From Candidatus Bathyarchaeota archaeon (GTDB lineage: Archaea > Thermoproteota > Bathyarchaeia > Bathyarchaeales > Bathycorpusculaceae), in the NCBI GenBank assembly GCA_963811105.1, contig CAWEPZ010000002.1:544001-608000 (forward strand): a DNA stretch of 64,000 nucleotides, given 5' to 3'. Shown in pieces: positions 23,251 to 40,907 of the stretch; within the stretch, counting starts at the first letter, position 1, and each line of letters starts with the position of its first letter. The translations under genes were made by a program, and so were the position numbers. The notes beneath the pieces were generated by a model that did not search any database, was not told where the DNA came from, and saw only the letters and a list, made by a program, of their open reading frames with translations.

Positions 23251-23295
23251 AATGTTGATTAACCTAGGAATTAAAGTTTCATTAGGCGAAACAGA

Positions 23296-23604
23296 ATGCT
23301 AGGTTTTGTCATTGGAGACAGCGACATGATTACTGGGTTTAGGCTTGTAGGTGTTGAAGGGGTCGAAGTAAGTTCACCTGAAGAAGCGTTACAGGCTCTA
23401 AACAAAGCGCTCGCTCAAACTGACCTGGCGCTCATTATTATAAGCGAAGACTTTTCTACCCAGCCGAAACTTCATGAAACAATCGATAAAACACGCCGCG
23501 AAAAAAGGCACCCATTAATCGTGGAGTTACCTGGAAGCAATGGAAAACCAACTCAAATCCGTATGTCTGACCTCATGAGCAAAACCTTAGGCATTAGAAT
23601 GTGA
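23296..23604 (+). CDS. atpF: A/V-type ATP synthase subunit F
   Basis: VIGDSDMITGFRLVGV; PLIVELP. Confidence 0.92.
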   Translation: MLGFVIGDSDMITGFRLVGVEGVEVSSPEEALQALNKALAQTDLALIIISEDFSTQPKLHETIDKTRREKRHPLIVELPGSNGKPTQIRMSDLMSKTLGIRM

Positions 23605-23617
23605 AGGCAACTCAAAC

Positions 23618-24238: not shown

Positions 24239-24250
24239 AGGAGGTGCCGA

Positions 24251-26015
24251 CTGAAGGGTAGCGTAATCCGAGTTGCAGGACCAGTTGTTGAAGCTAAAGG
24301 CATGGCAAAAGCCGTTATGCATGAATTAGTTGAAGTTGGCGAAGAGGGTTTAATTGGTGAAATTATTCGTCTAGAAGGCGACCATGCCACAATTCAAGTT
24401 TACCAAAACACATCCGGTCTCAAGCTTAATGAACCCGTCTTAGGCACAGGTGGCCCGCTTTCAGTTATCTTGGCTCCAGGCTTGGTAGGAAACGTTTTTG
24501 ATGGCATCCAAAGACCCCTCGAAGTGTTACGGACACTTACAGGAGCATTCATCAAACAAGTTCGGGGAGTGCCCTCTCTTTCTATTGACAAAAAATGGTC
24601 CTTCCAACCGAAAGCAAAGGTTGGCAGCCTCATGTCAAGCGGGGACGTGATCGGGACCGTTGCGGAAACCGATTTGGTTGAACATCGTATCCTTGTTCCA
24701 CCGAACTTGCAAGGCAAACTTGTGCAAATTGCGTCTGAAAGCAAATACATAATCACTGAGATAATCGCCACAATTGAAGCGAACGAAACACAAACCGAGT
24801 TGTCCATGCTTCAAAAATGGCCTGTGCGTAAACCTCGACCGCATAGTCGAAGACTTCCTGCCTCGGTGCCTCTAATCACGGGTCAACGTGTTATTGACAC
24901 TTTTTTCCCAATTGCCAAAGGTGGAAGCGCTTCAATTCCAGGCGGTTTCGGCACGGGGAAAACTATTACCCAGCAGCAACTTGCAAAATGGTCAGATGCC
25001 AACTTGGTAATTTACGTTGGTTGTGGAGAGCGCGGCAATGAGATGGTGGATGTGTTGTCCAGTTTTCCTAAGTTAATTGATCCGACAACTGGACATCCGC
25101 TTATGGAACGAACCATACTTATCGCTAACACAAGCAATATGCCTGTTTCCGCTCGTGAAGCCAGCATATACACAGGCATGACCATCGCTGAGTATTACCG
25201 AGACATGGGTTACAACGTGGCTTTAATGGCAGATTCAACAAGCCGCTGGGCAGAGGCATTAAGAGAAGTTTCAGGAAGGCTTGAAGAGATGCCTGCCGAA
25301 GAAGGATTCCCAAGTTATTTGCCCTCGCGCTTAGCAGAGTTTTATGAACGCACAGGCGTCGTAGAAACCTTAGGCGCGGAAAAACGGGTAGGCTCAATTT
25401 GCGCGATTGGAGCGGTTTCTCCACCTGGCGGAGACTTCTCTGAACCTGTCACACAGCATACCAAACGTTTTACACGGGTCTTCTGGGCTACTTGATCCTG
25501 AACTAGCAGACTCAAGACATTATCCTGCGATTAATTGGATTCAAAGCTACAGCGGTTACATCGGCGAACTTGCAGGTTGGTGGCATAACCAAGTCGATAA
25601 AGACTGGAATAGCTATAGGGAAGAGGCAATGCGCATCTTGCAGGCTGAGGATGACTTGAAAAATATCGTTAAACTGGTTGGTCCTGAAGCTTTGCCCGAT
25701 AGGCAACGCTTAATTTTAGAGATAGCCCGAATAATCCGAACAGCTTTCCTTCAACAGAACGCATTAGATGCAGTGGATACATATTGCTCTCCCCAGAAAC
25801 AATTCAAAATGCTCAAAATAATAATTGATTTCCAAAAGTCAGCTGAGCGGGTTGTAAGCAAGGGCGCACCAATCTTTAAAATTATTCAGTTGCCGGAGAC
25901 AGAAGAAATTATGCGCATGAAGACTTCAGTGTCAAATGACAAGATCAATCTTTTAGATGATCTGGAAAAGAGGATGCAGCAGCGCTTTGAGGAATTGGAG
26001 GCAAGTTTGAGGTAG
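24251..26015 (+). CDS. atpA: A/V-type ATP synthase subunit A (probable CTG start; +1 frameshift at ~25490)
   Basis: RVAGPVV N-terminus from 24251; P-loop [25 protein letters not shown]; RVFWA|[16 protein letters not shown] continues in the shifted frame. Confidence 0.93.
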
Positions 26016-26020
26016 CGAAT

Positions 26021-27418
26021 ATGGCTGGTACAGGATTAGAGTATAAAGGAGTAGCTTCAATTTCTGGCCCAATAATTATTGTGGAAAACGTTCGTGAAGT
26101 AGGCTATGACGAGCTTGTAAGCGTGAAAACGCAAACTGGAGAAACGCGTCTGGGAAAAGTCATTGAAGTAACTCAGAAAGCCGTAACCGTTCAAATCTTC
26201 GAAGGCACAACTGGCTTGTCGCCTTCTGAGACGCGTACTCGATTTCTAGGAAGATCCTTAGAAGTGCCTGTTTCCACAGAGATGCTTGGTCGAGTAATGA
26301 ACAGTTTTGGTGAACCTATTGATGGGCATCCGAGGTTTTTCACGGAAGAAAAACGTGATGTAAATGGTTGGCCTCTAAATCCTACTGCCCGAGAATACCC
26401 CAGAGACTTCATCCAAACAGGCATATCTGCAATTGACGGTTTAACCAGCCTTGTGAGGGGGCAAAAGCTTCCAATCTTCAGCGGTCCAGGCTTATCCCAT
26501 AATGATCTTGCTGCCCAAATTGTTAGACAGGCGCAGATTCGGGGGGGCGGAGAAGAATTCAACATAATATTTATTGCAATGGGACTTGAGCATGACGACG
26601 CCGCTTTCTTTCAAAAAAGTTTCGAAGAAACAGGCGCAATAAAAAACGTAGCTATGTTCCTTAATTTGGCAGAGGACCCGCCTGTGGAGAGAATTATCAC
26701 ACCTCGGGCTGGTTTGACTTTAGCGGAATATTTGGCGTTTGACCAGGAATCACATGTGCTTGTGATTTTGACCGATATGACAAATTACTGTGAAGCACTA
26801 CGCGAGGTTAGTGCATCAATGGAGGAAGTTCCAAGCAGAAAGGGGTATCCAGGATACATGTACAGTGACCTTGCAAGCCTATACGAGCGAGCAGGCAGAA
26901 TCGCAGGCAAAAAGGGCTCAATCACCCAAATGCCAATTTTAACCATGCCAAACGACGATATCACCCATCCTATTCCTGACTTAACAGGCTACATTACAGA
27001 AGGACAAATCGTTTTGTCAAGGGGTTTGGAAAAGCAGAGCATTTATCCCCCAATCACAATTTCCACAAGCCTTTCCAGACTGATGAAAGATGGCATAGGA
27101 AAAGATAGAACAAGAGAAGACCACGCCGATGTTGCAAGTCAACTATATTCAGCGTACGCCCAATACATCACAGTAAAGTCTTTGGCAACAATTATCGGCG
27201 AAGAAGGCCTGAGCAGCAGAGACAAGGATTACTTGCGTTTTGGCGAGCAATTTGAGCATAAACTAATTAATCAAGGCAAAAACGAGAACCGCTCCATTGA
27301 GCAAACGCTTTCAATAGCTTGGGACATAATGTCGGTTTTGCCAGACGAAGAATTAACCCGTATACACCCCGAAATCATCAAAAAATATTTCCCCAACATG
27401 GTTAAAGAGGTTACATGA
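26021..27418 (+). CDS. atpB: A/V-type ATP synthase subunit B
   Basis: [38 protein letters not shown]. Confidence 0.96.
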
Positions 27419-27424
27419 CAAAAA

Positions 27425-28060
27425 TTGTCTTTTGAAAACGTCAGTCCAACAAGAATTAATCTTATACAAACCAAAAAAACCCTTAGCCTAGCGGAGTCTG
27501 GACGCGATGTGCTTGAGCGTAAACGGGACATTTTGCTTCGTGAGCTACGAAATAGCATTTATGATGCAGAAAGAATTCGCGAGGATTTGTTGGAAGTTTT
27601 AAAGAAGGCCTATCAGAGTCTACAGGAGGCAAATATGGCTAAGGGGCCAGATACAATTGCCAACGTGGCCTTGGGGTCAAGTTTTGAATCTAATTTTCTA
27701 TTGGATTTCAAAAGCATCATGGGCGTCACCGTTCCAATTGTTGAATATCAAGGCGAACCAGAAGTGAAGCCAGATTATGGTTTTGCCAACACCAGTTCGG
27801 AATTAGATAGGGCGTTTAAGCAATTCTATAGCACGCTTGAGCTAATCGCTGATTTAGCTCGAGCCGAGGGAACAACGTTTCAAATTGCTAATGACGTGCG
27901 GAGAACCCAACGTCGAGTCAACGCCTTGAATCATGTTCTTATTCCCATGTACCGAAGCATTGCTAAACGGATTGAACTTGTTTTGGAAGAAAGGGATCGT
28001 GAAGAATTTGTAAGGACGAAATGGATTAAGCACATCGTTGAGGTGCGTGGCAGAGGATGA
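27425..28060 (+). CDS. atpD: A/V-type ATP synthase subunit D
   Basis: PTRINL, LERKRD, TQRRVNAL, LEERDRE; TTG start. Confidence 0.93.
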   Translation: MSFENVSPTRINLIQTKKTLSLAESGRDVLERKRDILLRELRNSIYDAERIREDLLEVLKKAYQSLQEANMAKGPDTIANVALGSSFESNFLLDFKSIMGVTVPIVEYQGEPEVKPDYGFANTSSELDRAFKQFYSTLELIADLARAEGTTFQIANDVRRTQRRVNALNHVLIPMYRSIAKRIELVLEERDREEFVRTKWIKHIVEVRGRG

Positions 28061-28503
28061 GTTGTTCGACTTTTAAGAGTATCCAGAAAATTTTGATCCC
28101 GACCGATGGTTCTGATTACAGTATTCGGGCGGCAGAATACGGTATATGTATTGCCAAGATGCTTGATGCTCAAATCACGGTTGTCTACGTGATAGACGAT
28201 GTTGTTCTTAACCAAATTTTCAAAGTGACCGAACTTGAAGAAGCTGAACTGGAACTAAAGAATGATGGTCAACGATACATCAATTATGTGCTTGGCTTAG
28301 CTCAGAAAGAAAATGTCAAGGCTGCTTCCTTGATTGCGAAGGGAAGGCCATTCGAGCAGATTGTTCATTTGGCTAAAGGATTAAATGTGGATTTAATTGT
28401 GATGGGAACATATGGGCGAAGGGGTGCCGAGCGTATTCTCATCGGGAGCGTTGCTGAACGAGTGATTGAATATTCACCATGTCCTGTTCTAGTTGTTAAA
28501 TAA
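28057..28503 (+). CDS. Universal stress protein (UspA family)
   Basis: KILIPTDGS, DLIVMGTYGR, IGSVAERV..SPCPVLVV; ATGA overlap with atpD. Confidence 0.92.
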   Translation: MSCSTFKSIQKILIPTDGSDYSIRAAEYGICIAKMLDAQITVVYVIDDVVLNQIFKVTELEEAELELKNDGQRYINYVLGLAQKENVKAASLIAKGRPFEQIVHLAKGLNVDLIVMGTYGRRGAERILIGSVAERVIEYSPCPVLVVK

Positions 28504-28522
28504 CCGTTGTGGAGAAGAAATA

Positions 28523-28714
28523 ATGGCGAAAGAAGGCAAGATAGAAAAAGACTACGCTGCTCTTAACGTAGCAATTGAAAGTTTGGCTCAAAAAGAGTTA
28601 AAGAATATTCAACAAGAAACTAACTTGTTAAAAGATGAGGTGGAAAAAACTGGTGAAGCCATCGAAAATTCCATAAACAAAACTCACATGAAGGCAAGCA
28701 AGAAAGAAAGTTAA
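28523..28714 (+). CDS. Small coiled-coil hypothetical protein in the ATPase cluster
   Basis: ATG at 28523 after GGAG; 63 aa, charged. Confidence 0.55.
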   Translation: MAKEGKIEKDYAALNVAIESLAQKELKNIQQETNLLKDEVEKTGEAIENSINKTHMKASKKES

Positions 28715-28754
28715 TAGATAAGCATGTGTTCTTTTTATTGGAGTTTGGCTCTCT

Positions 28755-29090
28755 GTGAAAGGTAAAATTTTAGTTTTGTTCCTATTGCCCCTCGTGGTCC
28801 TTGTGCCTCTTGTTGGAATGGCAGCAGCATTCTCAGTTTCTACAGTTCAAGCAACTACAACAACCGCTGGACCATATGATAGACTTGGCATAGCAATTAG
28901 TGCTGGACTAGCCATTGGGCTTTCTTCATTAGGCGCTGGACTTGCTATTTCCGCTGCCGGCAGCGCAGCAATTAGCGCATTGGCTGAGAAGCCTGAAACG
29001 TTTTTTAGAAGTTTCTTGATTGTTGCATTGGCTGAGGCATTGGCGATTTACGGTTTAATTATGGGTATTCTGCTTTGGCTCAAACTATGA
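28755..29090 (+). CDS. atpK: A/V-type ATP synthase proteolipid subunit K (c)
   Basis: Gly/Ala-rich hairpin, AEKPE, LAEALAIYG with the ion-binding Glu; N-terminal signal-like extension. Confidence 0.92.
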   Translation: MKGKILVLFLLPLVVLVPLVGMAAAFSVSTVQATTTTAGPYDRLGIAISAGLAIGLSSLGAGLAISAAGSAAISALAEKPETFFRSFLIVALAEALAIYGLIMGILLWLKL

Positions 29091-29225
29091 GCAATTTCCA
29101 ATGTTAGTGTTGATTGAATTAGCACCGCAGAAACTGAGTTAGTGATTGTTGTAGTTGCTAGGCAACCACACAAGCTTTAATTGACTTCTACAGAGTAAGA
29201 CTACTTGAGGTTCTTCGTTTTGCCA

Positions 29226-30083
29226 ATGAGCAGGCGTGAGTTTATAAAAATTGGCGCAGCAGCCGCTATAGGGGCTGGCGTAGCCAGTGCAATTGAAATA
29301 CCCATTTTAGAGAATGTTATTCAATCAGAAAATAGTAAGAGTAACCAGCTACAAAATCAGGATGTCCAGGTATTCTTAACTCTAAATAAAAATGAGCGTG
29401 TAATAGTTGAAGCTTTAGCTGAAACCATAATTCCAACCGATAGCAGTGGTCCAGGCGCAAAAGAAGCTGGAGTGATTTATTTTATTGACCATATGTTAGC
29501 TGGAAATTACGGCAAAGGAGGCAACATGTACCTTCAAGGGCCATTTGTCCATCCTCAATCTAGCTCATTAACAGTTACAGGGGCAGTTTACCCCACAACA
29601 ACAAAAAGCACCATCACCTATTCAGGCGGAACCATAACACCACGCCAACAGGCTGGTACAGCTTATCAATACGCTTTTAATCCACGAGAATTCTGGCGAC
29701 GTGGATTAGTTTTTCTTGATAATTATTGTACCGCCTCGAAAGGCAAAAATTTTGAATCCCTATCTTCGACAGATCGGATAACAGTGCTTCAAGAATTATT
29801 TGACAATAGCTCAAGCAACACTACTTTGCAGTCAGCTTTCCAAGGTCCAAACGCTGCAGAATTCTTCAACGAAGTCTATGACATGGTAGTTGCCGGGTTT
29901 TGGACAGATCCAATGTATGGCGGAAACCAAGGAATGGTAGGCTGGCAGCTAATAGCTTTTAATGCAAACTACTGGGGCGACGATATAGGTTTAGGCGCAA
30001 AAAAGTTAATGACGGCAGGCACCCCTACTCGGTTAAAACCCAAGAGTCTTGGTCAACTTCAAAAAGAAGGCGGAGGAGTATAA
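29226..30083 (+). CDS. Gluconate 2-dehydrogenase subunit 3-like protein with Tat signal
   Basis: SRREFIK twin-arginine motif; IIP..GPGAKEAGV..FID; GFWTDPMYGGNQ..VGW. Confidence 0.88.
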   Translation: MSRREFIKIGAAAAIGAGVASAIEIPILENVIQSENSKSNQLQNQDVQVFLTLNKNERVIVEALAETIIPTDSSGPGAKEAGVIYFIDHMLAGNYGKGGNMYLQGPFVHPQSSSLTVTGAVYPTTTKSTITYSGGTITPRQQAGTAYQYAFNPREFWRRGLVFLDNYCTASKGKNFESLSSTDRITVLQELFDNSSSNTTLQSAFQGPNAAEFFNEVYDMVVAGFWTDPMYGGNQGMVGWQLIAFNANYWGDDIGLGAKKLMTAGTPTRLKPKSLGQLQKEGGGV

Positions 30084-31901
30084 ATGTCAACCCCAATCAC
30101 ACATCCACAAACCGACGTCGTGGTATGCGGTTTAGGTCATATGGGTGGTCCAATAGCTGCAGAATTAACTGCAGCGAAATACAATGTTGTGGGAATAGAA
30201 AAAGGCCCATTCTGGGATTTTGCGACTGACTGGCGACAAGACAACAAAGATGACGAATGGGCTATCGGGCTGGAAAGAAAGTTCGATCATCCACTTTACA
30301 TTTCAACCTTCACAATTAGAAACACCATGGACCAGTTTGCTTTGCCCGTAAGACGCTACACAAAATCCGTTCAGTACCATGCTTTAGGTCATGGCGTGGG
30401 CGGCGTTGGAGTTCATTATGGTGGTGGCCTGGGAAGATTTTCACCATGGTCATATTCACCTGTCACCATGACAAAAGCGAAATATGGCGAAGCAGGATAC
30501 AACACTATATTAAGCAACGTGAAGGGAGGAACACCGGACTTAGAAGACTGGCCTGTCACATATGAAGACATGGTGCCATACTATGACTCCTGGGAAAAAG
30601 CTCTAGGCGTAGTAGGAACCAACCAAGACCCCTTCATCCCAAACGCCCATTATCCAAACCCTCCCCACCCAGAAACTGCTCATGCACCAATTTTCAAAAA
30701 TGCAGTAACAAGCCTTGGCTACACTCCTTATCCAACTGTTAGCGGCCTAGTAAGTGCAGGTTACACAAACCAATATGGCATCGCACGAAACAGTTGCGTA
30801 TACTGCGGCTGGTGTGGCGGCGCCTGTAACTATCCTTGTGAAGTTGGCGCCAAAAGTAGTTCTCATGTAACTACAATCCCTGCAGCAATTAATACAGGCC
30901 TATTCGACATGCGGCTTGACTCATACATTTTCCGCATCGACACCGATAATACGGGCAAAGCAACAGGCGTCAGATACTACGACGCCACAGGCAAGGTGCA
31001 TGTCCAACCCGCAAAGGTCGTGTTCAACGGGTTATGGGGCTTTAACCTCATGCGAGCAATGCTCTTGTCAGGAATAGGCACACCATACGACCCTGTTAAT
31101 CACACTGGTTCTTTAGGACGCGGCTTAGCCAACGGTTATAACCCTGCAACTTCAAGCGCAAGCGTACCGCTAAACGTTGGAGCAAACACTTACGTAAGCG
31201 GAAACGCCGCTGGCGGAGGTTACGCCATAATGGACCTCAACGAAGTCAACCCAAAATACAGCCATACTGACGATTTAACCTTCATGGGCGGTGTCAGCTT
31301 AAGCTTTGGAAACTACTTGGGAAGTGGTCCAGCGACATTCTCTTCTCACCCGCCAGGTAGAACTAACTTTGGCAGCACATGGAAAGCATCCATTAAAGAC
31401 GAGAGAATCCCCCAGAAAATAACAGCAACCCTATCAGGTACAGGACCTAATTTACCTCTCCTTGAACACTTTGCTGACTTGGACCCACATTACAGCGACA
31501 TCTACGGTGACCCATGCGCACGAATCACCCTGGACTGGGATGCCAACACTTACCGGACCTCAAATTACCTCATCAACAAAACCACGCTTATCACAGACAT
31601 CCTTGGCAAAATGGGCGACTCAACTAAAATCAAGAAAAACACGGTTGCTGAGCTTTCCCAGCATGTTGACTGGTGGGGACACCACATGAGAGGCGGCGCA
31701 AGAACAGGCTCAAACAAGGCAACATCAGTATTTAATAAGTGGATGCAGTGCTGGACTAGCGAAAACTTGTTTGCTGCTGGAGAAATCTGCGATACTTTCG
31801 GAGACAACATAACTGCTGGAACACACGTTGCCGGAGCAATGGCATATCTTGCAGCCGACGGAATAAAGAAGTATCTAGCAAATCCAGCCCCGCTTGTCTA
31901 A
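30084..31901 (+). CDS. GMC flavoprotein, gluconate 2-dehydrogenase alpha-subunit-like
   Basis: DVVVCGLGHMGG FAD motif, GVGG..VHY, DWPVTYED..PYY, Cys cluster CVYCGWC..CEVGAK, DLDPHYSD.YG.P. Confidence 0.9.
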   Translation: MSTPITHPQTDVVVCGLGHMGGPIAAELTAAKYNVVGIEKGPFWDFATDWRQDNKDDEWAIGLERKFDHPLYISTFTIRNTMDQFALPVRRYTKSVQYHALGHGVGGVGVHYGGGLGRFSPWSYSPVTMTKAKYGEAGYNTILSNVKGGTPDLEDWPVTYEDMVPYYDSWEKALGVVGTNQDPFIPNAHYPNPPHPETAHAPIFKNAVTSLGYTPYPTVSGLVSAGYTNQYGIARNSCVYCGWCGGACNYPCEVGAKSSSHVTTIPAAINTGLFDMRLDSYIFRIDTDNTGKATGVRYYDATGKVHVQPAKVVFNGLWGFNLMRAMLLSGIGTPYDPVNHTGSLGRGLANGYNPATSSASVPLNVGANTYVSGNAAGGGYAIMDLNEVNPKYSHTDDLTFMGGVSLSFGNYLGSGPATFSSHPPGRTNFGSTWKASIKDERIPQKITATLSGTGPNLPLLEHFADLDPHYSDIYGDPCARITLDWDANTYRTSNYLINKTTLITDILGKMGDSTKIKKNTVAELSQHVDWWGHHMRGGARTGSNKATSVFNKWMQCWTSENLFAAGEICDTFGDNITAGTHVAGAMAYLAADGIKKYLANPAPLV

Positions 31902-31941
31902 ACAACGAACCCAACTCTTTTTTACTCTTTGAGTTTCAAGC

Positions 31942-32517
31942 ATGAGCTATACTAACAAGGATATTTGGGATCAACTTAGCCACTTTGTAAACATAATTCC
32001 GCAAGAATATCTCAAAGCACTATTGATTTTGCATGATAAACTTGGAGACAAGACTATCAAGTGGGTCCTGACTGGCGACTTGGCGGAAAGTTTAAGAGTA
32101 GTTAAAGTTGAACCTAACTGCATAGAAATTGTAACTTCAGAAGATGACGCGCAACGAATTTTACCAGCAGTTCAAGAATTTGCTCCGACCCCAATAACTT
32201 TTCAAACCCAGAAACTCTCGAGAAACGCCTTAATTCAGGGAAAAGAGTATCCAGTATACATTAGAAGCTACTTTTTCAACTTTAACCTAAATTCGGTCAA
32301 AGTCAAGGTTCAAGGCGACTTGCAGTACAAAGTCGGACACTGGGACTGGGGTGACATTTTCGATTTTACTCCTGACTACGTTAGTGTTGTTGGAAAAAGA
32401 ATCGCAGTGACACCTCTCTCAATCGCAACTGAACTTTACCAATCTCTAGGGTGGGTTGACAGAGTGGATAAAATAAAAGAAGTAACTCAAAAATCGCGAG
32501 TTCCAAGGCCATCTTAG
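31942..32517 (+). CDS. Hypothetical protein, nucleotidyltransferase-like fold
   Basis: WVLTGDLA..L.V..EP..IEI resembles a degenerate NTase motif. Confidence 0.55.
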   Translation: MSYTNKDIWDQLSHFVNIIPQEYLKALLILHDKLGDKTIKWVLTGDLAESLRVVKVEPNCIEIVTSEDDAQRILPAVQEFAPTPITFQTQKLSRNALIQGKEYPVYIRSYFFNFNLNSVKVKVQGDLQYKVGHWDWGDIFDFTPDYVSVVGKRIAVTPLSIATELYQSLGWVDRVDKIKEVTQKSRVPRPS

Positions 32518-32523
32518 AACAAA

Positions 32524-33390
32524 TTAAATTAAGATTATTTTATCAACAATTAACCCTATCATCAAACACGCTAAATAAGGCATTGAGGCAACAAATACCT
32601 TGAATCCGTTCGCCTCAGACGTTCCGGCTATCAATCCTCTATTTTGAAACAAAAATAAAGATCCAGCCACCACAGCAAAAAACAAAAAAACGGTGCCTGT
32701 CAGTTGCGAAAGCGGAAACAGAAAAGCGGAAGCAACCGTCAAAACATTCAGCCCAAAAACAACATACGAAGACCTAACTATGCCAATCCTAACGGGCAAC
32801 ATTGGAACTCCAGCATGTTTGTACTCTTTCATTTTTTTGATGGCTAACCCCCAGAGATGTCCAGGAGTCCAAAGAAAATCAAACATTGCAACGAGCAGGG
32901 GCATTAAACTCAGAGTATTCACGGCAGCTGTCCAGCCTGAAAGAGCTGCGAAACAGCCAGCAAAGCCTCCAATAACTACATTCCAGGAGCTGATGCGTTT
33001 AAGCCAAACCGTGTACACATAGAGGTAAAATGCTGTTCCAAGAGCAATCATTAAAGCGGTTAATGGGTTAAGAAGAAAGAAGGCTAAGCCAAGGGATGAT
33101 CCAATCATAATTGTTCCAAATACTATCGCCTTATTAGACTTGACATGTCCAGATGGAATTGCCCTTCTTGATGTTCGCGCCATCAACTTGTCAATATCTT
33201 GATCGTAAACACTATTTATGACACCACAACCGCCCGCCGCCAAATAGCCAATCACAACAAACACTGCCAGCTTAAGCCAATCAACAGTTGGAAACCCTGC
33301 AACCACGAAACAGGTGACGCCTACCAGTAGGTTTAAGAGAGTAACCTTAGGCTTTGTAAGTTCGAGATATTTGCTTGTTTTTTGGGGCAT
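32524..33390 (-). CDS. cyoE: Heme O synthase (protoheme IX farnesyltransferase)
   Basis: LTKPKV, N..YDQDID.LM.RT..R.IPSG, YT.WLKR, WTPGH, EY..AGVPMLP. Confidence 0.95.
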   Translation of the reverse strand: MPQKTSKYLELTKPKVTLLNLLVGVTCFVVAGFPTVDWLKLAVFVVIGYLAAGGCGVINSVYDQDIDKLMARTSRRAIPSGHVKSNKAIVFGTIMIGSSLGLAFFLLNPLTALMIALGTAFYLYVYTVWLKRISSWNVVIGGFAGCFAALSGWTAAVNTLSLMPLLVAMFDFLWTPGHLWGLAIKKMKEYKHAGVPMLPVRIGIVRSSYVVFGLNVLTVASAFLFPLSQLTGTVFLFFAVVAGSLFLFQNRGLIAGTSEANGFKVFVASMPYLACLMIGLIVDKIILI

Positions 33391-33420
33391 TATGCTAAAC
33401 TCTTTTGAATATTGATACTC

Positions 33421-33957
33421 TTACATTCCCATTCCATTTTCCAGGCTTGAATTTGTGGTGATTATGACAGAGCCGTACATTCCAGCTTCAGCGTGTCCTG
33501 AAATTGGACAGATGTAGTAAAATGTTGAACCAGCGTTGTTGGGTGTAAAAATCACTGAGCCTTTTTGGTTTGGCTGAACCGGATCGGTGGCTGAACCGAT
33601 TTGAGCGTTGAAAAGCACCTTGGCTCCTGTTCTCGGTGCATTGGTAACTGCAAAAGCGTAAGGCATTTTTCCAATGTTAACTACGGTTATGTTAACCACA
33701 TCAGATGTTTTGAATCGAAGTGTGGGTCCGGGTGAAGCCAAAGTATTTGGCGATTCGCCGAAACCATATTGATTTCCTGATATTTCTCCCTCATAAAGTA
33801 CAATGTTTATTGTTGGAGTTTTGTTTGAAGCGATAGAAATTGCAGTTAACGGGAGTTGGGCATCAAATACAAACACAGTCATTGCCGCAAAGTAAAAAAT
33901 TGCCGCAAGCCCTATGATCCCAATAATTGTTAAGTTTGTTTTGCGCGTTTTGTTTAC
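33421..33957 (-). CDS. Membrane-anchored sulfocyanin/rusticyanin-like cupredoxin (first His ligand reads Tyr)
   Basis: SPGPTL, YYICPISGHAEAGMYG (C, H, M ligands); the open frame encodes an N-terminal TM anchor from ~33957 with no canonical start. Confidence 0.8.
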   Translation of the reverse strand, partial: VNKTRKTNLTIIGIIGLAAIFYFAAMTVFVFDAQLPLTAISIASNKTPTINIVLYEGEISGNQYGFGESPNTLASPGPTLRFKTSDVVNITVVNIGKMPYAFAVTNAPRTGAKVLFNAQIGSATDPVQPNQKGSVIFTPNNAGSTFYYICPISGHAEAGMYGSVIITTNSSLENGMGM

Positions 33958-34235
33958 ATCCCCATTGTGATAGTCAATGCGGCAGAAACCCCAAGGAAAA
34001 CAACGCCTATAATGGCAGCTAAGGGTAGAGTAGCAAGTCTAATTCCGTCATAACGTAGGTGCTGATAGTACAGCGCTATAGCCATTGCTTTCGCTGAGGC
34101 AATTAGGCTGATCACAAGCACGATAAAGGATGTTGATCCAGGCAGAGATCGGACTACTACCTCCATTACAGTAGCTAACACTAGTCCAAGCCAGATTCCG
34201 ATATAGATTTTAATTCCAGGCATACTTTTTTTCAC
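33954..34235 (-). CDS. ctaF: Heme-copper oxidase subunit IV
   Basis: Three short TM helices; KA..IALYYQHLRY motif; follows subunit III. Confidence 0.8.
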   Translation of the reverse strand: MKKSMPGIKIYIGIWLGLVLATVMEVVVRSLPGSTSFIVLVISLIASAKAMAIALYYQHLRYDGIRLATLPLAAIIGVVFLGVSAALTITMGM

Positions 34236-35009
34236 CTAAATTAAGTAGAAGAGCGGAAAGAGGAACATCCAAACGATATCAACAAAGTGCCAATAGACAC
34301 CGATGTTTTCTACTGCAATGTGTTTCGTGCTCGTAAATCCTCCGCCAAATGCCCTAAACATAAGATATCCAACTGCCACTAAGCCCACAGCTACGTGTAC
34401 TGCATGAATGCCAGTTAACACATAGTAACTAGAGGCAGGCAAACCGCTGTTTATTGTGAATCCATTGCGGACAAGAGTGGGCCATTCAACTCCAAGCTTA
34501 ATTCCTAGGAAAGCGAAGCCTAACGCAAATGTTGTTACTAAACAAATTTTTAGTCCTTTCACGTTGCCTTCCCTTATCGAGTAAAGTGCTAGAATCATTG
34601 CCAAACTGCTTGTAAGCAAGATAATCGTGTTCGTCATTCCAAGTAGCATGTTATGGGTTTGCGTTGCTATAGGCCAAGAACCGCTATTTATTCGAACGTA
34701 AACGTAGGCAATAATAAGCGACCCAAAAATCAAGATTTCTGATGCAAGAAAAACCCATAATCCAAGTTTCTCCTTGCTTACTGACTCAAGAGGAAATTTT
34801 TCTTCCGCAGTTTCTTTGGATCCGGCGAACTTTTCCTCAGCGCCGTCTTTGAACACTTTAATCAGCGCTGCGGATATGATGATTAGTCCAGCTACGAGAA
34901 GCGGAATATAGATTGCAAGTCCCAGCAAAAATACTGCGACTCCTGCCGCAATTAAAATCGGCATGTAGGAAGATTTGCTTTCCTCAGCTTTTGTATTTTC
35001 ATCTTTCAT
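34236..35009 (-). CDS. coxC: Heme-copper oxidase subunit III
   Basis: WVFLASE..FG, NT.ILL.SS, LTGIHAVHV, YWHFVDIVW; start MKDEN at 35009. Confidence 0.93.
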   Translation of the reverse strand: MKDENTKAEESKSSYMPILIAAGVAVFLLGLAIYIPLLVAGLIIISAALIKVFKDGAEEKFAGSKETAEEKFPLESVSKEKLGLWVFLASEILIFGSLIIAYVYVRINSGSWPIATQTHNMLLGMTNTIILLTSSLAMILALYSIREGNVKGLKICLVTTFALGFAFLGIKLGVEWPTLVRNGFTINSGLPASSYYVLTGIHAVHVAVGLVAVGYLMFRAFGGGFTSTKHIAVENIGVYWHFVDIVWMFLFPLFYLI

Positions 35010-35010
35010 A

Positions 35011-36669
35011 TTATGATACCTTCTCGGGAGCTTTGGTTCCCTCAATTGTTTCTGACGAGTCAGTCGCATCCGCTGTGTCGGATGTCTTTATCATAGACTC
35101 GGGTGACGATTCTGATCCGCTATAGTTGCCTGTCCACTCCATTTCTTTTGCGTCCCATGGGTTTGGTTCGGAAGGTTCATTTTTTCTATAACTTATAAGA
35201 AGGTTTAGAATGGTTAGTAAGACGGCTGGTCCGAACACATAAGCCCCTATTGTTGCATCAAGATTCAAGGATGCCCATCCTGAAAGCACAGGGTAAGTTG
35301 AAATTCTTCTGGGCATATTCAGAAGGAAAAAGTAGGGCATATAGAGTACATTGAATCCAATGAACGAAATTGCAAAGGTGACTTTGCCGAATTTTTCGTT
35401 GTATTTTCTTTTGGTTATTTTTGGCCACCAATAATAGAGCCCGGCCAAAAGCGCGAACAATGCAGTTCCAGCCATGACATAGTGAAAGTGGCCTACCACC
35501 CAGTATGTTCCTCGGAAAGCGAAGTCTAAAACTGGAAAAGCTTGCAAGACCCCGGTAACTCCGCCAAGGGTGACAGTAAATATTGACGCTAAACAAAATA
35601 GCATCGGCGTTGTCAGCTTTATTCTGCCTTTATAAAGTGTTAACACCAAGCCAAGAACTAGCCCTTCAAAAGGTATGGAAATAGCCAAAGTCGTAACCGA
35701 GAATGCTTGCAAAACATCGTAGTTTACTCCTGTTGTGAACATATGGTGCATCCAAACTCCCAAGCTCAGAAAGGTCACTGCGGCAAACTCTATAATGAAA
35801 ATTTTTCTCTGGAATAATGGTTTCTTGGCAAATGTCATAAAAACTTCGGCAATTATGCCCAAAGAAGGAAAAACAACAATGTAGACTTCTGGGTGTCCAA
35901 AGAACCAGAAGAGCTCGTCCCACAAAATGCTTCCTCCCTGTGTAGAACTGAAGAAGACGGTGCCTAGGATTCGGTCCGTTGTTAGCAACACCAACCCTGC
36001 TGCTAATGGGGGAAACGCAAAAAGCGCCAGCGCCATAGTCATTAGAATGGACCAAGTAAAGATTGGTAGACGCGTCCACGTTACACCTTTAGCCCTGTTT
36101 TTCACGACCGTCGTGATAAAGTTAATTGAGGACATTGTGGCTGAGACAGCAAATAATGCTAATGCCAATATGGCAAGAGTTGCTCCTGCTTGAGGTGTGA
36201 ATTGTATGGTGTTTAGAGGCGCATAAAGTGTCCAACCTGTATTTGGTCCACCTCCAGGGAGAAAAACTGTTCCAACAAGAAGTACACCGCTGAAGAGGTA
36301 CATCCAGTAGCTTGTAGCGTTTAAACGTGGAAATGCCAAGTCTTTTGCACCTATCTGAAGTGGCACAATGTAGTTAGCTATTCCAAAACCAAGAGCTGAA
36401 AGAACCCAGAGAATCATTAAAAGCCCATGCAAGGTTACGACCTGATCATAAGCGAAAGGATCAAGAAGAGTTCCGTTTGGCACCGCGAGTTGTGTTCTTA
36501 TAAGTTCGCCAAACGAGCCTGCCACGATTAGAAAAAACACGGCTGTTATTATGTAGAGTATGCCTACTCGCTTGTGATTGGTTGTTGTTAACCAGTTTTT
36601 GATGGAGTCTCCGCGGTACAAGTTTTTAGCCTCCTGACTTTGTAGGGTTTGTCGCTGTCTGATTTCCAA
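35011..36669 (-). CDS. coxA: Heme-copper oxidase subunit I, A1 type
   Basis: TNHKRVG, HGLLM, DLAFPRLN (D-channel), GWT.Y.PL, FGHPEVY, WMHHMF, GHFHY, MPRR. Confidence 0.96.
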   Translation of the reverse strand: MEIRQRQTLQSQEAKNLYRGDSIKNWLTTTNHKRVGILYIITAVFFLIVAGSFGELIRTQLAVPNGTLLDPFAYDQVVTLHGLLMILWVLSALGFGIANYIVPLQIGAKDLAFPRLNATSYWMYLFSGVLLVGTVFLPGGGPNTGWTLYAPLNTIQFTPQAGATLAILALALFAVSATMSSINFITTVVKNRAKGVTWTRLPIFTWSILMTMALALFAFPPLAAGLVLLTTDRILGTVFFSSTQGGSILWDELFWFFGHPEVYIVVFPSLGIIAEVFMTFAKKPLFQRKIFIIEFAAVTFLSLGVWMHHMFTTGVNYDVLQAFSVTTLAISIPFEGLVLGLVLTLYKGRIKLTTPMLFCLASIFTVTLGGVTGVLQAFPVLDFAFRGTYWVVGHFHYVMAGTALFALLAGLYYWWPKITKRKYNEKFGKVTFAISFIGFNVLYMPYFFLLNMPRRISTYPVLSGWASLNLDATIGAYVFGPAVLLTILNLLISYRKNEPSEPNPWDAKEMEWTGNYSGSESSPESMIKTSDTADATDSSETIEGTKAPEKVS

Positions 36670-37297
36670 GCCACTGGTTAAAAGCGGCTGAATCCATAAT
36701 TATAAGTGGCATATTCATGTACGTGTGACCAGCGCCACACAATTCGTAGCAGCGAATAGTATAGTTTAGTTGACTGTTTCCATTTAAGGATGGAGTTGTT
36801 ACTCCAATTACATTGTATCTGCCCGGTATGGCGTCGACTTTAACTCTGAAGTCCATTAGACCAAAATTATGCATAACGTCGCTACTTGTTACATTAAAAA
36901 TAATACTTTTGTTAGCCGGAACAGCACATTCTCTTGTAGAGTATACTCCGGTAGGATAAGTAAAATTAAAACTCCATTGGAAAGCTGTGACCTTTATAAC
37001 TAAGCTTTCTGAAACAGGTGGTGGAAACCGAGCATTGGGCGTGAGTCTGTAGGAAGCGACTGTCAAACTAAGCAAGATTATAATTGAAATTACTGCGAAA
37101 ATCACAGCTTCTCTAGCTCGATTTCTTGATAAACCGATTTGAGGAATAAATTTTGGTTGTCCTTTTCTCTCCCGATATCTTATCGCAAAGAAAACCATTG
37201 CGCCTATAACAACCGCCACTGCCAATATTGCGATAGTAACAGCTAGAGTGAAGAGATTGTTCCAATCTACAGTCGAAGAGGGCAGAGGTTGTGACAT
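36626..37297 (-). CDS. coxB: Heme-copper oxidase subunit II with CuA site
   Basis: Two TM helices, QWSF, DVMH, CYELCGAGHTYM; no fused cytochrome c (no CxxCH). Confidence 0.94.
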   Translation of the reverse strand: MSQPLPSSTVDWNNLFTLAVTIAILAVAVVIGAMVFFAIRYRERKGQPKFIPQIGLSRNRAREAVIFAVISIIILLSLTVASYRLTPNARFPPPVSESLVIKVTAFQWSFNFTYPTGVYSTRECAVPANKSIIFNVTSSDVMHNFGLMDFRVKVDAIPGRYNVIGVTTPSLNGNSQLNYTIRCYELCGAGHTYMNMPLIIMDSAAFNQWLGNQTATNPTKSGG

Positions 37298-37369
37298 AAA
37301 ATTGGCCTTTTCTTTTTAATCAAAACTCTGTAAGAAAATAAAAAGAAAGAGGGATTATCAAAGTCATGT

Positions 37370-37840
37370 TTATGGGGCAACCGTAACTGGACCATACATT
37401 CCTAAGCTTACGTGGCTGTCAAGTTGACATATGTAAAAATAGCTTCCCGCGCTGCCTGCTGTGAATGTTGCTGAAGCACTGCTTCCTGGTGCGACTGGAT
37501 TGCTGACTGATCCTACTTGTGCGCCGATGAAGGCTAAGTTTGTGTTTCCATCGGTTTTCTGAGCGACGATGGCCCAGTTGTGTGGAATTGTTCCAACATT
37601 GTGAAGGGTAACGGTATAGGTTTGTCCTGCGGTGAAGGTCATTGTTGGTCCAGGTGATGTTATGCTGCCGGCAGTGTTGCCAAATCCGTATGCTGGTGAG
37701 TCTGATGCGTATATGTCAACGTGTGTTCCTCCGCCTCCCCCTGTGGAAGACGGTTTATAATACACATATGCGAGGACTCCTGCTATTACTATAACTATTA
37801 CGACGACTGCTGCGATAATGTATGAAGTAGTTTTATTCAT
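37370..37840 (-). CDS. Membrane-anchored sulfocyanin-like blue copper protein
   Basis: N-terminal TM anchor, SPGPT, PHNW, YFYICQLDSHVSLGM (H, C, H, M type 1 copper ligands). Confidence 0.88.
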   Translation of the reverse strand: MNKTTSYIIAAVVVIVIVIAGVLAYVYYKPSSTGGGGGTHVDIYASDSPAYGFGNTAGSITSPGPTMTFTAGQTYTVTLHNVGTIPHNWAIVAQKTDGNTNLAFIGAQVGSVSNPVAPGSSASATFTAGSAGSYFYICQLDSHVSLGMYGPVTVAP

Positions 37841-38066
37841 TCTTCCTGTCTCCTGAATTTTACTAAATCAGTTGATTAATAATCAGAAACTTGAGGGTTT
37901 AAAGCTGTGTTGGTTGCTTCGTACAGTCACAAGTTAATAAATGGGTTGAGAAATTAATGATAATTCAACGATGGATCGCATGTACAAAACTGATTAAGTG
38001 TGATTGACAAGCACCTATCACATAAATAGAAATAGCTAGGTCGGTTCCTTTATTTTAGGAATAATC

Positions 38067-38540
38067 ATGTTTCAGTATTGGCTAAGGATTATTGCTTTGC
38101 ATGCTGGGACTCCGCCCGTTATTTCCCAAACCATAATGTCGGTAATGTTTGTTAGTTTAGGCGTTTTTTTAATGGGCATCGGATTCGGGTATCTAATAAA
38201 GACCAGAGAAAATCTGCTTCAACATCGTTGGGTCTTGTCGGCGGTTGTCGCTTTATCTTTAGGCGCGATTTTTTTTGGGATGCTTCCTTCGTTTATCCGA
38301 TATTACGGCGATACTGATGTTGAGTTTTATTCTGCGCTCTCAGGGACAACGTTACTTCATGCCATTATTGGCGCCCCCGCAATCATTACAGCAACATATT
38401 ACGTGTTTGGTATATTGCCCAAGAAGAATTTGAAGAAGTGGATGAGATGGACCGCAGTTCTCTGGATAGCCAGCATTGTTTTAGGCATTGTTTTGTTCCT
38501 TCAGATGTTCAATTTGTTGCCTTCGATGCCAGGTATGTAG
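38067..38540 (+). CDS. DUF420/CtaM-like four-helix membrane protein
   Basis: LLQHRW...LLHAIIG...KKWMRW pattern with two intramembrane His. Confidence 0.65.
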   Translation: MFQYWLRIIALHAGTPPVISQTIMSVMFVSLGVFLMGIGFGYLIKTRENLLQHRWVLSAVVALSLGAIFFGMLPSFIRYYGDTDVEFYSALSGTTLLHAIIGAPAIITATYYVFGILPKKNLKKWMRWTAVLWIASIVLGIVLFLQMFNLLPSMPGM

Positions 38541-38546
38541 AGTACG

Positions 38547-38696
38547 ATGAAAGGAAAGTTGAATAGAGGTCAAAATGTATCAACGGAAAATGACTCAAAA
38601 CGCAAAGACGCAATAAAATTGTTGTTGACTGGGGCAATCGTAGCCACAGTGGCGATTGTAATTGGCTTAATTATTGTTATTCATTTTGGCTTCTAA
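38547..38696 (+). CDS. Small single-TM protein
   Basis: 49-aa ORF with a C-terminal hydrophobic helix, between the two DUF420-like genes. Confidence 0.45.
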   Translation: MKGKLNRGQNVSTENDSKRKDAIKLLLTGAIVATVAIVIGLIIVIHFGF

Positions 38697-38743
38697 CGTT
38701 CGCAAAGAAGAATATTTATTAGAAATTAAGACCTAAGTAATGT

Positions 38744-39184
38744 TTGGTTTTCAGCTTGTTTGCTAATTTAATTTTGATCGTTTCTCAAACTGCCTTAGCG
38801 CTAATGTTGGTTGTTTTAGGCGTGCTTTTTATAGGGATAAGTTACGGCGTTCTGACAAAAAGCAAAGAACGCCTTCTGCTGCATAGATGGAGCATGTCCG
38901 TAGCAATTGTTCTGGCTTGTGGGGCGATTTTGTTGGTCATGCTGCCTTCAGCTTTTAACTTTTACATCGACCCTAGCCTTCAATTTTTCTCTTCTTTATC
39001 AATTATTATTTTTATCCATGCAGTAGTCGGAGCCCCCGCCATCACAATAGGCTTAATTTATGCTCTCGGCGATTTGCCTCAAAAAGTTAAGCAATGGATG
39101 CGTTTGGCAGCAATCTTTTGGGCAATTAGCCTAGGTTTAGGATTATTTGTATTTTTAGAAATGATGGGATTCTTACCCTTTTGA
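38744..39184 (+). CDS. DUF420/CtaM-like membrane protein (paralog of 38067..38540)
   Basis: LLLHRW...IHAVVGAPAI...KQWMR; clearly similar to the upstream paralog. Confidence 0.65.
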   Translation: MVFSLFANLILIVSQTALALMLVVLGVLFIGISYGVLTKSKERLLLHRWSMSVAIVLACGAILLVMLPSAFNFYIDPSLQFFSSLSIIIFIHAVVGAPAITIGLIYALGDLPQKVKQWMRLAAIFWAISLGLGLFVFLEMMGFLPF

Positions 39185-39203: not shown

Positions 39204-40763
39204 CTATTTTTTGTGGAACTTCGGAATCTCCTTAGAAATCAGCAGTTCATCTATTCGCAGCAAAAGAGATGAAATCTCATAAGCCCTTCTAATTATTGAG
39301 CGTTTTATTCTAGCTGGTTCCAAGCATACCGTGTCGCAGCAGCTTTCCTCGCTTACTCCGTAACTGCATAGTCCACTCGAATGATGTTTTTTTAATTGTA
39401 GCAAGACATCTGTCGGGTTTAATCCATAATTTTCCGCAAGACACCTTGGGATATCCATCAAAGCAGTGCCAAACGATTCAATTGCAACCTGTTCTCGACT
39501 TGGAAACTTTTTGGCGTAAGATTTTAGTTCTTGCGCTATGTGAGCTTCAACTGCTCCGCTGCCTGGCAAAACTCGGTTATCTTCATTCATTATTTTTAGA
39601 ACTGTCATGCTGTTACGGATAGCGGTTTCCAATTCGTCGATTGCTTGCGGTGTGCTTCCTCTAAGCATAAAGGTTGCGCCTTTGCAGCCTTGAATTGTTA
39701 CCATTTTTTCAAGCTCTATCCTGCCTGTATAAAGTTCTTCTGCAGAGCCTAAGTCTTCTTTCGTAAGTTCCTCTAGTTTCCCAACAATTCTAGCCCCCGT
39801 AGCTCTAGCAACTGCCTCAGTATCCTTCTTGTCAACTTTTTCAAGCGCAAAAATGCCTCGCGAAAGCAGCTTATCTTTCAAGGTTCCATCGATTGGCTGT
39901 TCGCATATCAAAACGTTAGCTTTAAGTTCAATTAACTTGTCTAGGGAGTCTATTCTAATTTTGTTCTCAGCTTCACGGTATTTCCTGAGTTGTTCAGGGC
40001 TTTTTACGTTTAATTTGATTTGGTTTGGTCCTTCACCCTTCATCTTGATTTCTAATCGGTTTATCCCTGGTCTTTGGCTATTGATTGCTATGCGCAAGTT
40101 TTTCAGCTTGTCTGGCATATTTGGGTGAGCTTTTTCTTTCTTTATTACAATTCCTTTGATTAGGTTTGATTCTTGGATGCTGCCCCGAAGGTTCTTCAAA
40201 AATCTCAAGTTATCCTTCTCGAATTTGCCGTCTGAAATCGCCAGCTGGTATGCTTCCATTATCATCGAGCGCATGTTAGGCATCAAAAGTTTTCTTCCAC
40301 AATCAACTATGTCTAAAACATCGATGTTTAGGCTTCCGTAGGCTTTGGCTTGCTGGTCTATTACTTCCAGCGCTTTGTTTGTTGCCAAATAGTAACCGTG
40401 AATAATGGTGTTAGCATGAATCCCCATAGCTAAGAGTTCATCTGCTTTCTTTAGTAAGGCTGACAAGAAAACGACAAAAGTTGCTACCCCGTCGCCTGCT
40501 TCGTTTCGCTGCATCTTGGCAGACTCAGAAATCATAACGGCAGGTGGATACTGAATTGCAAGCTCGTCTAAGATTGCAATCGCGTCTTTGGTGATTTTAA
40601 CAACTTGCTCTGGACCCCTATTGTAAGCTACAAGTTTGTATGCTCCTTGAGGACCGAGTGTGCTTCGGATTTTGTCGGCTGCAAAAATGGCTAAGCGCAG
40701 ATTTTCCCGCCATACATCTTTTCCGGTTGTGCGCTTGTAGTTTTTGGAGATAATGCTTTCCAT
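39204..40763 (-). CDS. Divergent group II chaperonin (thermosome-like)
   Basis: STLGP, ITKD, AGDG, HPNMP, LRG, LPG.GAVE, IPR.LAEN.G, LLRIDE; start MESII at 40763. Confidence 0.88.
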   Translation of the reverse strand: MESIISKNYKRTTGKDVWRENLRLAIFAADKIRSTLGPQGAYKLVAYNRGPEQVVKITKDAIAILDELAIQYPPAVMISESAKMQRNEAGDGVATFVVFLSALLKKADELLAMGIHANTIIHGYYLATNKALEVIDQQAKAYGSLNIDVLDIVDCGRKLLMPNMRSMIMEAYQLAISDGKFEKDNLRFLKNLRGSIQESNLIKGIVIKKEKAHPNMPDKLKNLRIAINSQRPGINRLEIKMKGEGPNQIKLNVKSPEQLRKYREAENKIRIDSLDKLIELKANVLICEQPIDGTLKDKLLSRGIFALEKVDKKDTEAVARATGARIVGKLEELTKEDLGSAEELYTGRIELEKMVTIQGCKGATFMLRGSTPQAIDELETAIRNSMTVLKIMNEDNRVLPGSGAVEAHIAQELKSYAKKFPSREQVAIESFGTALMDIPRCLAENYGLNPTDVLLQLKKHHSSGLCSYGVSEESCCDTVCLEPARIKRSIIRRAYEISSLLLRIDELLISKEIPKFHKK

Positions 40764-40907
40764 CGTTATCCTTCTGTGGTAGTTAATGGCAGAATGCGAA
40801 AGCTTCCGCAAGTCTGCGCATACTTGCTTAGCACCTATTGCTCTTAAAACTAAGTGACTGTAACAACACAACAACAAATATAGAAAACTTTGCACTAAAG
40901 CAACGGG

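Follow-up and report, generated by a model that had tools for sequence, protein, structure and literature searches.

How electrons withdrawn from a substrate outside the cell could reach oxygen in an archaeon in which no cytochrome c is found is the question raised by a gene cluster in a Candidatus Bathyarchaeota genome. The cluster occupies positions 29226 to 39184 of a 64,000-nucleotide stretch (the window; positions 544,001 to 608,000 of contig CAWEPZ010000002.1, assembly GCA_963811105.1), where a two-subunit dehydrogenase, made up of a small subunit with a twin-arginine translocation (Tat) signal and a GMC-type subunit that binds flavin adenine dinucleotide (FAD), converges on an operon for a heme-copper oxidase and two cupredoxins (blue copper proteins). 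The source genome comprises 3.49 Mb in 15 contigs, is 96.65% complete, and was placed among soil and peat Bathyarchaeia by the titles of its nearest public relatives and by a tree of the GMC subunit. An earlier note on this DNA, made from the sequence alone, had suggested that the flavoprotein reduces a cupredoxin directly and so forms a quinone-independent route to O2. All of the genes that it named were recovered in place by a listing of open reading frames (ORFs) and by family scans, together with two that it had omitted, a conserved gene for a 191-amino-acid protein (31942-32517) and a thermosome paralog (39204-40895). The chain to which the evidence points runs from FAD through an iron-sulfur centre and a membrane-anchored cupredoxin to the CuA oxidase, and we give it about an even chance of being correct.

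The small subunit is the sole match to PF13618 in the genome and, by a motif scan of all ORFs, bears its sole classic Tat signal. The twin-arginine motif MSRREFIK starts at 29226, residues R10, R11, F13 and K15 (RRxFxK) are invariant in 18/18 aligned homologues, and TatC is encoded in the genome; the TAT_signal profile itself matched with an E value of 3e-4, just under its cut-off. Since the large subunit begins directly at its FAD-binding motif and has no signal peptide, its export would rely on the Tat signal of the small subunit. A profile built from 21 homologues of the large subunit matched the large subunit of Gluconobacter fructose dehydrogenase (FDH; 8XCN/7W2J) over its full length (E 2e-28) and the alpha subunit of the FAD-dependent glucose dehydrogenase (GDH) of Burkholderia (6A2U; E 6e-22). 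In the alignment of the same homologues, all four cysteines of the cluster SCVYCGWCGGACNYPC (C238, C244, C248 and C252) are invariant, as are G16, G18, G22, H111 and H534, and the Cys-rich loop aligns with that of FDH and GDH. Residue H111 was taken as the counterpart of the FAD-linked His105 of the Burkholderia enzyme, this stretch lying outside the displayed alignment. The Cys cluster is a predicted iron-sulfur centre. These residues uphold the earlier descriptions of a Tat-bearing small subunit and of a Cys cluster in the FAD subunit.

Compared with the Burkholderia cepacia FAD-GDH (gamma-alpha-beta) and with Gluconobacter FDH, the pair shares a signal-less GMC-fold catalytic subunit with the FAD-binding GxGxxG motif and the catalytic His, and a PF13618 hitchhiker small subunit that carries the Tat signal; its cysteines also align with the loop in which those enzymes bind 3Fe-4S. 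It differs in that no membrane-bound multi-heme cytochrome c subunit was found in the cluster or in the genome, in the spacing of its cysteines (C-x5-C-x3-C-x3-C versus CC-x4-C-x3-C), in its low identity to these enzymes (profile E values of 1e-22 to 1e-28), and in having a cupredoxin gene where the gene for the partner would be expected. In the homologous enzyme, according to the available part of the report, the small subunit is a Tat hitchhiker and a 3Fe-4S cluster at the protein surface carries electrons from FAD to the tri-heme subunit (PMC6719666). The window also encodes a second GMC oxidoreductase of 850 amino acids (48645-51197, reverse strand) with a similar Cys cluster, CTNCMQCGLCHLGC, and a C-terminal extension of 330 amino acids without a family match; no partner with a Tat signal adjoins it. 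A CxxCH motif in this second protein was considered as a heme site and rejected, as it lies inside the cluster that resembles that of the main enzyme.

At the other end of the proposed chain, the CuA motif of oxidase subunit II, H...CYELCGAGHTYM (H...CxExCxxxHxxM), could be read directly in COX2, in keeping with the intact CuA site reported earlier for CoxB, and the best NCBIfam match of this subunit is CoxB, not CyoA or QoxA. Subunit I, the only copy in the genome, carries the motif GHPEVY. A PF00115 subunit I with GHPEV, accompanied by subunits II, III and IV, places the enzyme among the A-type heme-copper oxidases, and CuA in subunit II sets it apart from the quinol oxidases; of the cytochrome c that serves this class as donor, neither a family member nor a maturation system was found in the genome. 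The complete CuA site together with GHPEVY therefore indicates an oxidase that takes its electrons from a one-electron protein donor and not from quinol. CuA is a known entry site for cupredoxins such as sulfocyanin and halocyanin in archaeal oxidases. The genome gave no match to heme A synthase (PF02628), in a search that also misses Sulfolobus among the controls.

Two membrane-anchored cupredoxins had been read in the cluster, and this description stood for one of them. The protein encoded at 37370-37840 has an N-terminal hydrophobic membrane anchor and the full type-1 ligand set of His, Cys, His and Met (H87, C138, H143 and M148), invariant in 17/17 orthologues, and its orthologue directly adjoins the dehydrogenase module in other genomes. 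The in-operon cupredoxin (33421-33882) does not have this set, its ligand positions reading Tyr/Cys/His/Met with Tyr in place of the first His. It also has no canonical start codon ahead of its anchor; the frame upstream is open (33421-33953) and encodes the anchor seen in orthologues, among which ligands have been lost several times independently (HSDM, HSQL, YSDL), the Cys or others. By its sequence it looks degenerate in the source genome and is possibly a structural or decaying partner. Because of these defects in ligands and start, the anchored cupredoxin at 37370-37840 was taken as the likely carrier. Another anchored cupredoxin, of 233 amino acids, is encoded elsewhere in the genome (C11:992183-997326; L081:5184-10327) beside a 450-amino-acid protein with a CHRD domain and an 859-amino-acid beta-propeller matching PQQ_2, which may together form a second extracellular redox set.

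Searches of the source genome for alternative carriers, for which the positive controls gave matches in 7 to 9 of 14 known genomes, returned no cytochrome c (PF13442), no cytochrome c maturation protein (PF01578) and no cytochrome b (PF00033, PF13631). No ORF of the cluster contains CxxCH, as the earlier note had observed, and no ORF of the genome contains more than one; its recommended check for a cytochrome c or complex III elsewhere in the genome likewise came back empty with these four profiles and the scan for multiple CxxCH motifs. Four Rieske matches were considered as part of a complex III and rejected, being soluble ferredoxin-like proteins or frames of 100-113 amino acids with no anchor or Tat signal, one of them broken by a stop and missing the CxH motif. 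The scans for cytochrome b, cytochrome c, its maturation and Tat signals also disclosed no other donor to the cupredoxin in the source genome. Quinone synthesis was searched for through the UbiA family and through the MenA proteins of relatives. No MenA-like gene is among the five UbiA-family members of the genome (CtaB, two lipid-type prenyltransferases and two PRK13591-like genes), and the MenA proteins of relatives had no counterpart by tblastn. Since neither complex III nor MenA was found, the dehydrogenase is the only evident input to the oxidase in this genome. Like the SoxM supercomplex of Sulfolobus and the plastocyanin-type chains of Thaumarchaeota (ammonia oxidisers and marine heterotrophs), the candidate chain is free of cytochrome c and would feed a CuA oxidase from a blue copper protein. 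Those chains differ in including quinone and a Rieske/cytochrome b complex, and the source genome shows neither, no Rieske protein and cytochrome b paired with a blue copper protein having been found in it; the class of dehydrogenase differs as well, and a gene linkage of dehydrogenase and cupredoxin is not reported for them in the available parts of the sources.

In the proposed mechanism, the FAD subunit would fold with its cofactors in the cytoplasm and leave it through the Tat system, guided by the signal on its small partner, like the bacterial fructose and glucose dehydrogenase complexes. Outside the cell, the dehydrogenase would oxidise a sugar, a polyol or a related compound, to the identity of which the neighbouring genes gave no pointer, and electrons would pass from FAD to the surface iron-sulfur cluster, which would reduce the anchored cupredoxin in place of the bacterial tri-heme cytochrome c subunit. 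The cupredoxin would in turn reduce CuA of the A-type oxidase, and reduction of O2 would build a proton gradient for the neighbouring A-type ATPase. Gene context is what suggests both transfers, to the cupredoxin and from it. In some relatives, a second input made up of menaquinone enzymes, Rieske protein, cytochrome b and a cupredoxin of its own would feed the same oxidase.

The gene context was examined at two levels. Across a class sample of 401 genomes, CoxI was present in 53, GMC in 27 and both in 21, such that CoxI accompanied 21 of the 27 GMC-bearing genomes versus 32 of the 374 without GMC; the six genomes with GMC and without CoxI are all 77-91% complete or have a broken GMC gene. In the family of the window, the GMC and CoxI genes share a contig with about 5 kb between them, and their arrangement takes several forms. 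This co-occurrence in relatives answers a check that the earlier note had asked for. Neighbourhoods were compared in 67 loci from a scan of species representatives with the 21-homologue profile and in 9 added loci, 68 being archaeal. A cupredoxin gene lay within 4 kb of the pair in 41 of the 68 archaeal loci, CoxI within 8 kb in 27, and either in 45; when only the 48 loci flanked by 4 kb or more in each direction are counted, these numbers become 33, 23 and 37. The source genome has five cupredoxin genes in 3.49 Mb, three of them outside the cluster, from which a chance cupredoxin neighbour was calculated at about 1.5% per locus.

The arrangements themselves vary. The convergent order of the window is replaced by an inverted cox block (L015), by cox upstream and divergent (L031) or by an order with a thermosome gene inserted (L012, L013, L024, L027), and in L052 the GMC gene is followed directly by CoxII and a CoxI/III fusion. 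The anchored cupredoxin is placed just after the 191-amino-acid gene (e.g., L010, L039, L055) or just before the small subunit (L051, L072). Genus g96 is especially informative: its oxidase genes are on other contigs, yet in 8/8 loci one or two anchored cupredoxins are encoded upstream of the small subunit in divergent orientation. A quick tree of the GMC subunit, for which the careful search was unfinished, shows adjacency to cupredoxin or cox in all three main archaeal clades. The type of cupredoxin follows the GMC clade, a short CxxHxxM loop going with one clade and a long loop with the other two; the short loop, which we take to be amicyanin-like, is found in g96, L030 and L038, and the long loop in the clade of the window. 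Where g96 loci have a pair of cupredoxins, the second (L083:6852-7304; counterparts in L085-L089) has Leu for the axial Met (CxxHxxL), and the modules with a CxxHxxL protein therefore hold two copper proteins, probably of differing potential. At four loci of the same genus as the source genome (L036, L051, L053, L028), the small-subunit/GMC pair is only about 50% identical to that at 29205-31901 and occupies the same site beside cox, with the flanking ATPase and cox genes 70-89% identical to those of the window, which looks like replacement of the pair in place.

Several observations weigh against a direct connection between dehydrogenase, cupredoxin and oxidase. The loci and genomes counted above are not independent and come mostly from a few clades. 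Neither cupredoxin nor cox is nearby in 11 of the 48 fully flanked loci, namely L022 and ten loci labelled Nitrososphaerota, several of which have YbjQ and MFS transporter genes downstream instead. Bacterial homologues of the pair (five in Bacillaceae and two in Actinomycetota, 27-34% identical) have no cupredoxin and no CxxCH ORF nearby, the two features for which their neighbours were screened, and two-subunit forms can therefore evidently use another acceptor. The pair and a cupredoxin are kept in L014 and L020, where the local cox genes are lost; conversely, the oxidase occurs without GMC in G401 and G016, and it is thus not dependent on the GMC gene. An 11-subunit Nuo-like complex is kept in the source genome, which hints at some membrane carrier, and cytochrome b is present in 12 of 17 oxidase-bearing relatives (7/7 in g96, and G129, G391, G401, G366 and G400).

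Much of this would follow if the cluster is a common aerobic island whose parts are not wired directly to one another, being inherited and regulated together as genes of use in the presence of oxygen, with the dehydrogenase donating to O2, to a membrane carrier or to an external acceptor and the cupredoxin served by another donor. Among 40 relatives, GMC was found in 5/24 and CoxI in 6/24 of the same genus and both in 0/16 of the other genera of the order, a patchiness in which the genes appear to be gained and lost as blocks, TatC and the thermosome paralog following them; the separations noted above and the Nuo-like complex are also as expected for such an island. A general island does not predict that the cupredoxins of g96 accompany the dehydrogenase rather than the oxidase, as they do in 8/8 loci, and the scans of the source genome described above turned up no other donor to the cupredoxin. 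In addition, homologous dehydrogenases pass single electrons from a surface iron-sulfur cluster to a protein partner, as described in the available part of PMC6719666. We consider this the main rival to the direct chain, weakened by the g96 arrangement and on the whole unlikely.

The g96 arrangement can also be read differently, with dehydrogenase and cupredoxin forming a real module for which the heme-copper oxidase is either not the sink or only one of several; electrons would go to acceptors outside the cell or to copper enzymes of another kind, and adjacency to cox would be secondary. A cupredoxin stands beside the pair with no cox in the locus DNA in L014, L020, L029, L030, L038 and L062 and in the 8 g96 loci, and the three cupredoxin genes outside the cluster could be part of such a route. 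CoxI is, however, encoded elsewhere in 11 of the 14 g96 genomes with GMC, and the role of CuA as entry site for archaeal cupredoxins speaks for the oxidase as sink. A module with another sink than the oxidase, or with a further one, is judged improbable.

The cytochrome b of relatives belongs, in G401, G366 and G391, to a cassette that encodes a polyprenyl synthetase, a fusion of cytochrome b5, Tat signal and Rieske protein, cytochrome b, a relative of the in-operon cupredoxin, a methyltransferase resembling MenG/UbiE, and MenA, the last matching TIGR00751 just above its cut-off (L097:5406-11485 in G401; also L098 and L099). The genes that flank the cassette in G401 and G366 lie about 180 bp apart in the source genome (C11:444136-444633 and 444811-445089), and its absence is therefore not an assembly gap. 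Cytochrome b was not found in the oxidase-bearing relatives G010, G012, G375, G411 and G205. The earlier proposal of a quinone-independent chain is favoured by the computational checks for the source genome and partly supported on the whole; the absence of complex III extends to 5 of the 17 relatives examined and cannot be generalised to the group. The picture is modular, with the copper proteins as a hub that is fed by quinone/complex III in some genomes and by the dehydrogenase in others, while still others have the two inputs together.

Absence of the cassette could also be a sign that the cluster in the source genome is a decaying remnant that no longer respires. The in-operon cupredoxin without its first copper ligand and canonical start codon fits such decay, as does the neighbouring atpA gene (A-type ATPase subunit A; 24302-26015, forward strand), which is split into overlapping frames of 397 and 202 amino acids by a frameshift near 25490. 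Decay is seen in relatives as well: many stops interrupt both genes in G023; the cox genes are lost in L022, L014, L020 and L060; and G001 keeps only TatC and a truncated thermosome gene. Against this, the source genome has uninterrupted reading frames of full length for both dehydrogenase subunits, CtaB, CoxI-IV and the anchored cupredoxin, with invariant catalytic and ligand residues, and single-base frameshifts may be assembly errors; that in atpA may be such an error or a real break. A defunct cluster is, in our view, very improbable. As for the H+-type ATPase that the earlier note had placed next to the chain, an A-type ATPase operon does lie upstream, with atpA frameshifted in the assembly.

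The genes of the locus are listed in Table 1.

Table 1. Genes of the dehydrogenase-oxidase locus and its borders, in window positions.
Feature	Position	Strand	Match or remark
A-type ATPase operon	20189-29090		Upstream of dehydrogenase pair
Small subunit, Gluconate_2-dh3 family	29205-30083	+	PF13618, E 8e-29; probable true start 29226
GMC-type FAD large subunit, 605 amino acids	30084-31901	+	Weak Pfam match, PF00732, E 4e-6; profile match to FDH/FAD-GDH
191-amino-acid protein, TM1012-like nucleotidyltransferase fold	31942-32517	+	No Pfam/NCBIfam match; Foldseek 2FCL
Heme O synthase CtaB	32524-33390	-	TIGR01473, 245.5 bits vs cut-off 210.3
In-operon cupredoxin	33421-33882	-	Pfam Cu-oxidase_3 and SoxE matches
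Oxidase subunit IV (COX4_pro)	33954-34235	-	PF03626, E 1.4e-9
Oxidase subunit III (COX3)	34236-35069	-	PF00510, E 1.8e-26
Heme-copper oxidase subunit I, A-type (COX1)	35011-36669	-	PF00115, E 4e-133; TIGR02891, 564 bits
Oxidase subunit II (COX2), complete CuA site	36626-37297	-	TIGR02866, E 2e-42
Membrane-anchored type-1 cupredoxin	37370-37840	-	PF00127, E 1.4e-8
DUF420-like four-helix membrane protein	38067-38540	+	PF04238, E 0.009, below cut-off
Second DUF420-like membrane protein	38744-39184	+	PF04238, E 8e-4, below cut-off
Divergent thermosome (group II chaperonin) paralog	39204-40895	-	PF00118, E 4e-113, below thermosome equivalog cut-offs

Several accessory genes travel with the two parts of the cluster. 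The 191-amino-acid protein, for which the AlphaFold2 model has a mean predicted local distance difference test (pLDDT) of 90 and the best Foldseek match is 2FCL (E 2e-13, template modeling scores of 0.70/0.84), is on this model a conserved cytoplasmic protein with a TM1012-like nucleotidyltransferase fold, and in 47 of the 68 archaeal loci the dehydrogenase pair has a homologue of it no more than 3 kb away. The thermosome paralog shares 31-34% identity with the genome's five further thermosome genes and tracks the GMC dehydrogenase, not the oxidase: it was present in 9/9 GMC-bearing relatives tested, in 0/2 with cox only, and in 1/12 with neither, there truncated and beside TatC. In g96, a paralog follows the 191-amino-acid gene. 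It may be a chaperonin dedicated to the dehydrogenase as its client. TatC itself was found in 11/11 genomes of the family with GMC or cox and in 1/12 with neither. Both DUF420-like genes are syntenic with cox, the first (38067-38540) in most Bathyarchaeia loci; atlas features assign the product of this gene to DUF420 clusters with a score of 0.93, and it probably serves the oxidase as an accessory factor. Contigs from relatives, for the most part 90-99% alike, in two runs of one study labelled metatranscriptomic, and marked as probably DNA, lie over 29220-32067 and 37479-37863, and contigs of relatives from two DNA runs cover 29/30 and 23/30 bins; no inference was drawn from either set. Apart from the cluster, a 195-amino-acid ORF at 6389-6976 (forward strand) aligns with Cas1 over its C-terminal half alone (positions 147-282 of the profile) and is a Cas1 fragment or a truncated gene.

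A precedent for the central step is the methylamine dehydrogenase-amicyanin couple, in which a periplasmic dehydrogenase has as its dedicated one-electron acceptor a cupredoxin encoded adjacently. The cofactor of that dehydrogenase is tryptophan tryptophylquinone, and in Paracoccus the electrons continue via cytochrome c to the oxidase; the enzyme of the window differs in its FAD and predicted iron-sulfur cofactors, and no cytochrome c was found in the source genome. Other pieces of the picture are already in print. That periplasmic pyrroloquinoline quinone (PQQ) dehydrogenases feed blue copper proteins has been hypothesised for cytochrome c-free archaea, the marine thaumarchaea, in the available part of PMC7300363. 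Cytochrome c oxidase genes in soil Bathyarchaeia of the genus Houtuousia have been interpreted as evidence of (micro)aerobic respiration (PMC10321748), and the portion of that report at hand mentions no electron donor, cupredoxin or GMC dehydrogenase. A fused coxAC has been described in Gagatemarchaeaceae, in a report whose available text contains none of the terms GMC, gluconate, plastocyanin and cupredoxin (PMC10640624). No paper was found that links an enzyme of the GMC/gluconate-2-dehydrogenase type to an archaeal cupredoxin, in a search that lay outside most subscription journals and supplements. The earlier suggestion that the architecture had gone undescribed has to be toned down in view of the PQQ analogue and the Bathyarchaeia oxidase as they appear in the available parts of PMC7300363 and PMC10321748.

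We put forward tentatively, and with confidence somewhat short of even, that some soil Bathyarchaeia possess a complete respiratory chain of three components, in which a blue copper protein on a membrane anchor connects an exported FAD/iron-sulfur dehydrogenase to a CuA heme-copper oxidase, working without quinone, complex III or cytochrome c. This chain would be carried on a mobile island with its own Tat component, a helper with a nucleotidyltransferase fold and a thermosome paralog dedicated to its client, and the cupredoxin would be a natural replacement for the tri-heme subunit. The bacterial relatives of the dehydrogenase are the basis of direct-electron-transfer biosensors for glucose and fructose, and a small copper protein would, if the proposal is true, be a new type of natural partner for this class of enzymes. 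It would also offer a clean natural case of energy conservation without quinone or complex III. For the organisms themselves, if O2 is respired through a minimal chain that starts directly at an extracellular dehydrogenase for sugars or polyols, their role in the turnover of carbon in soil and peat would have to be viewed differently.

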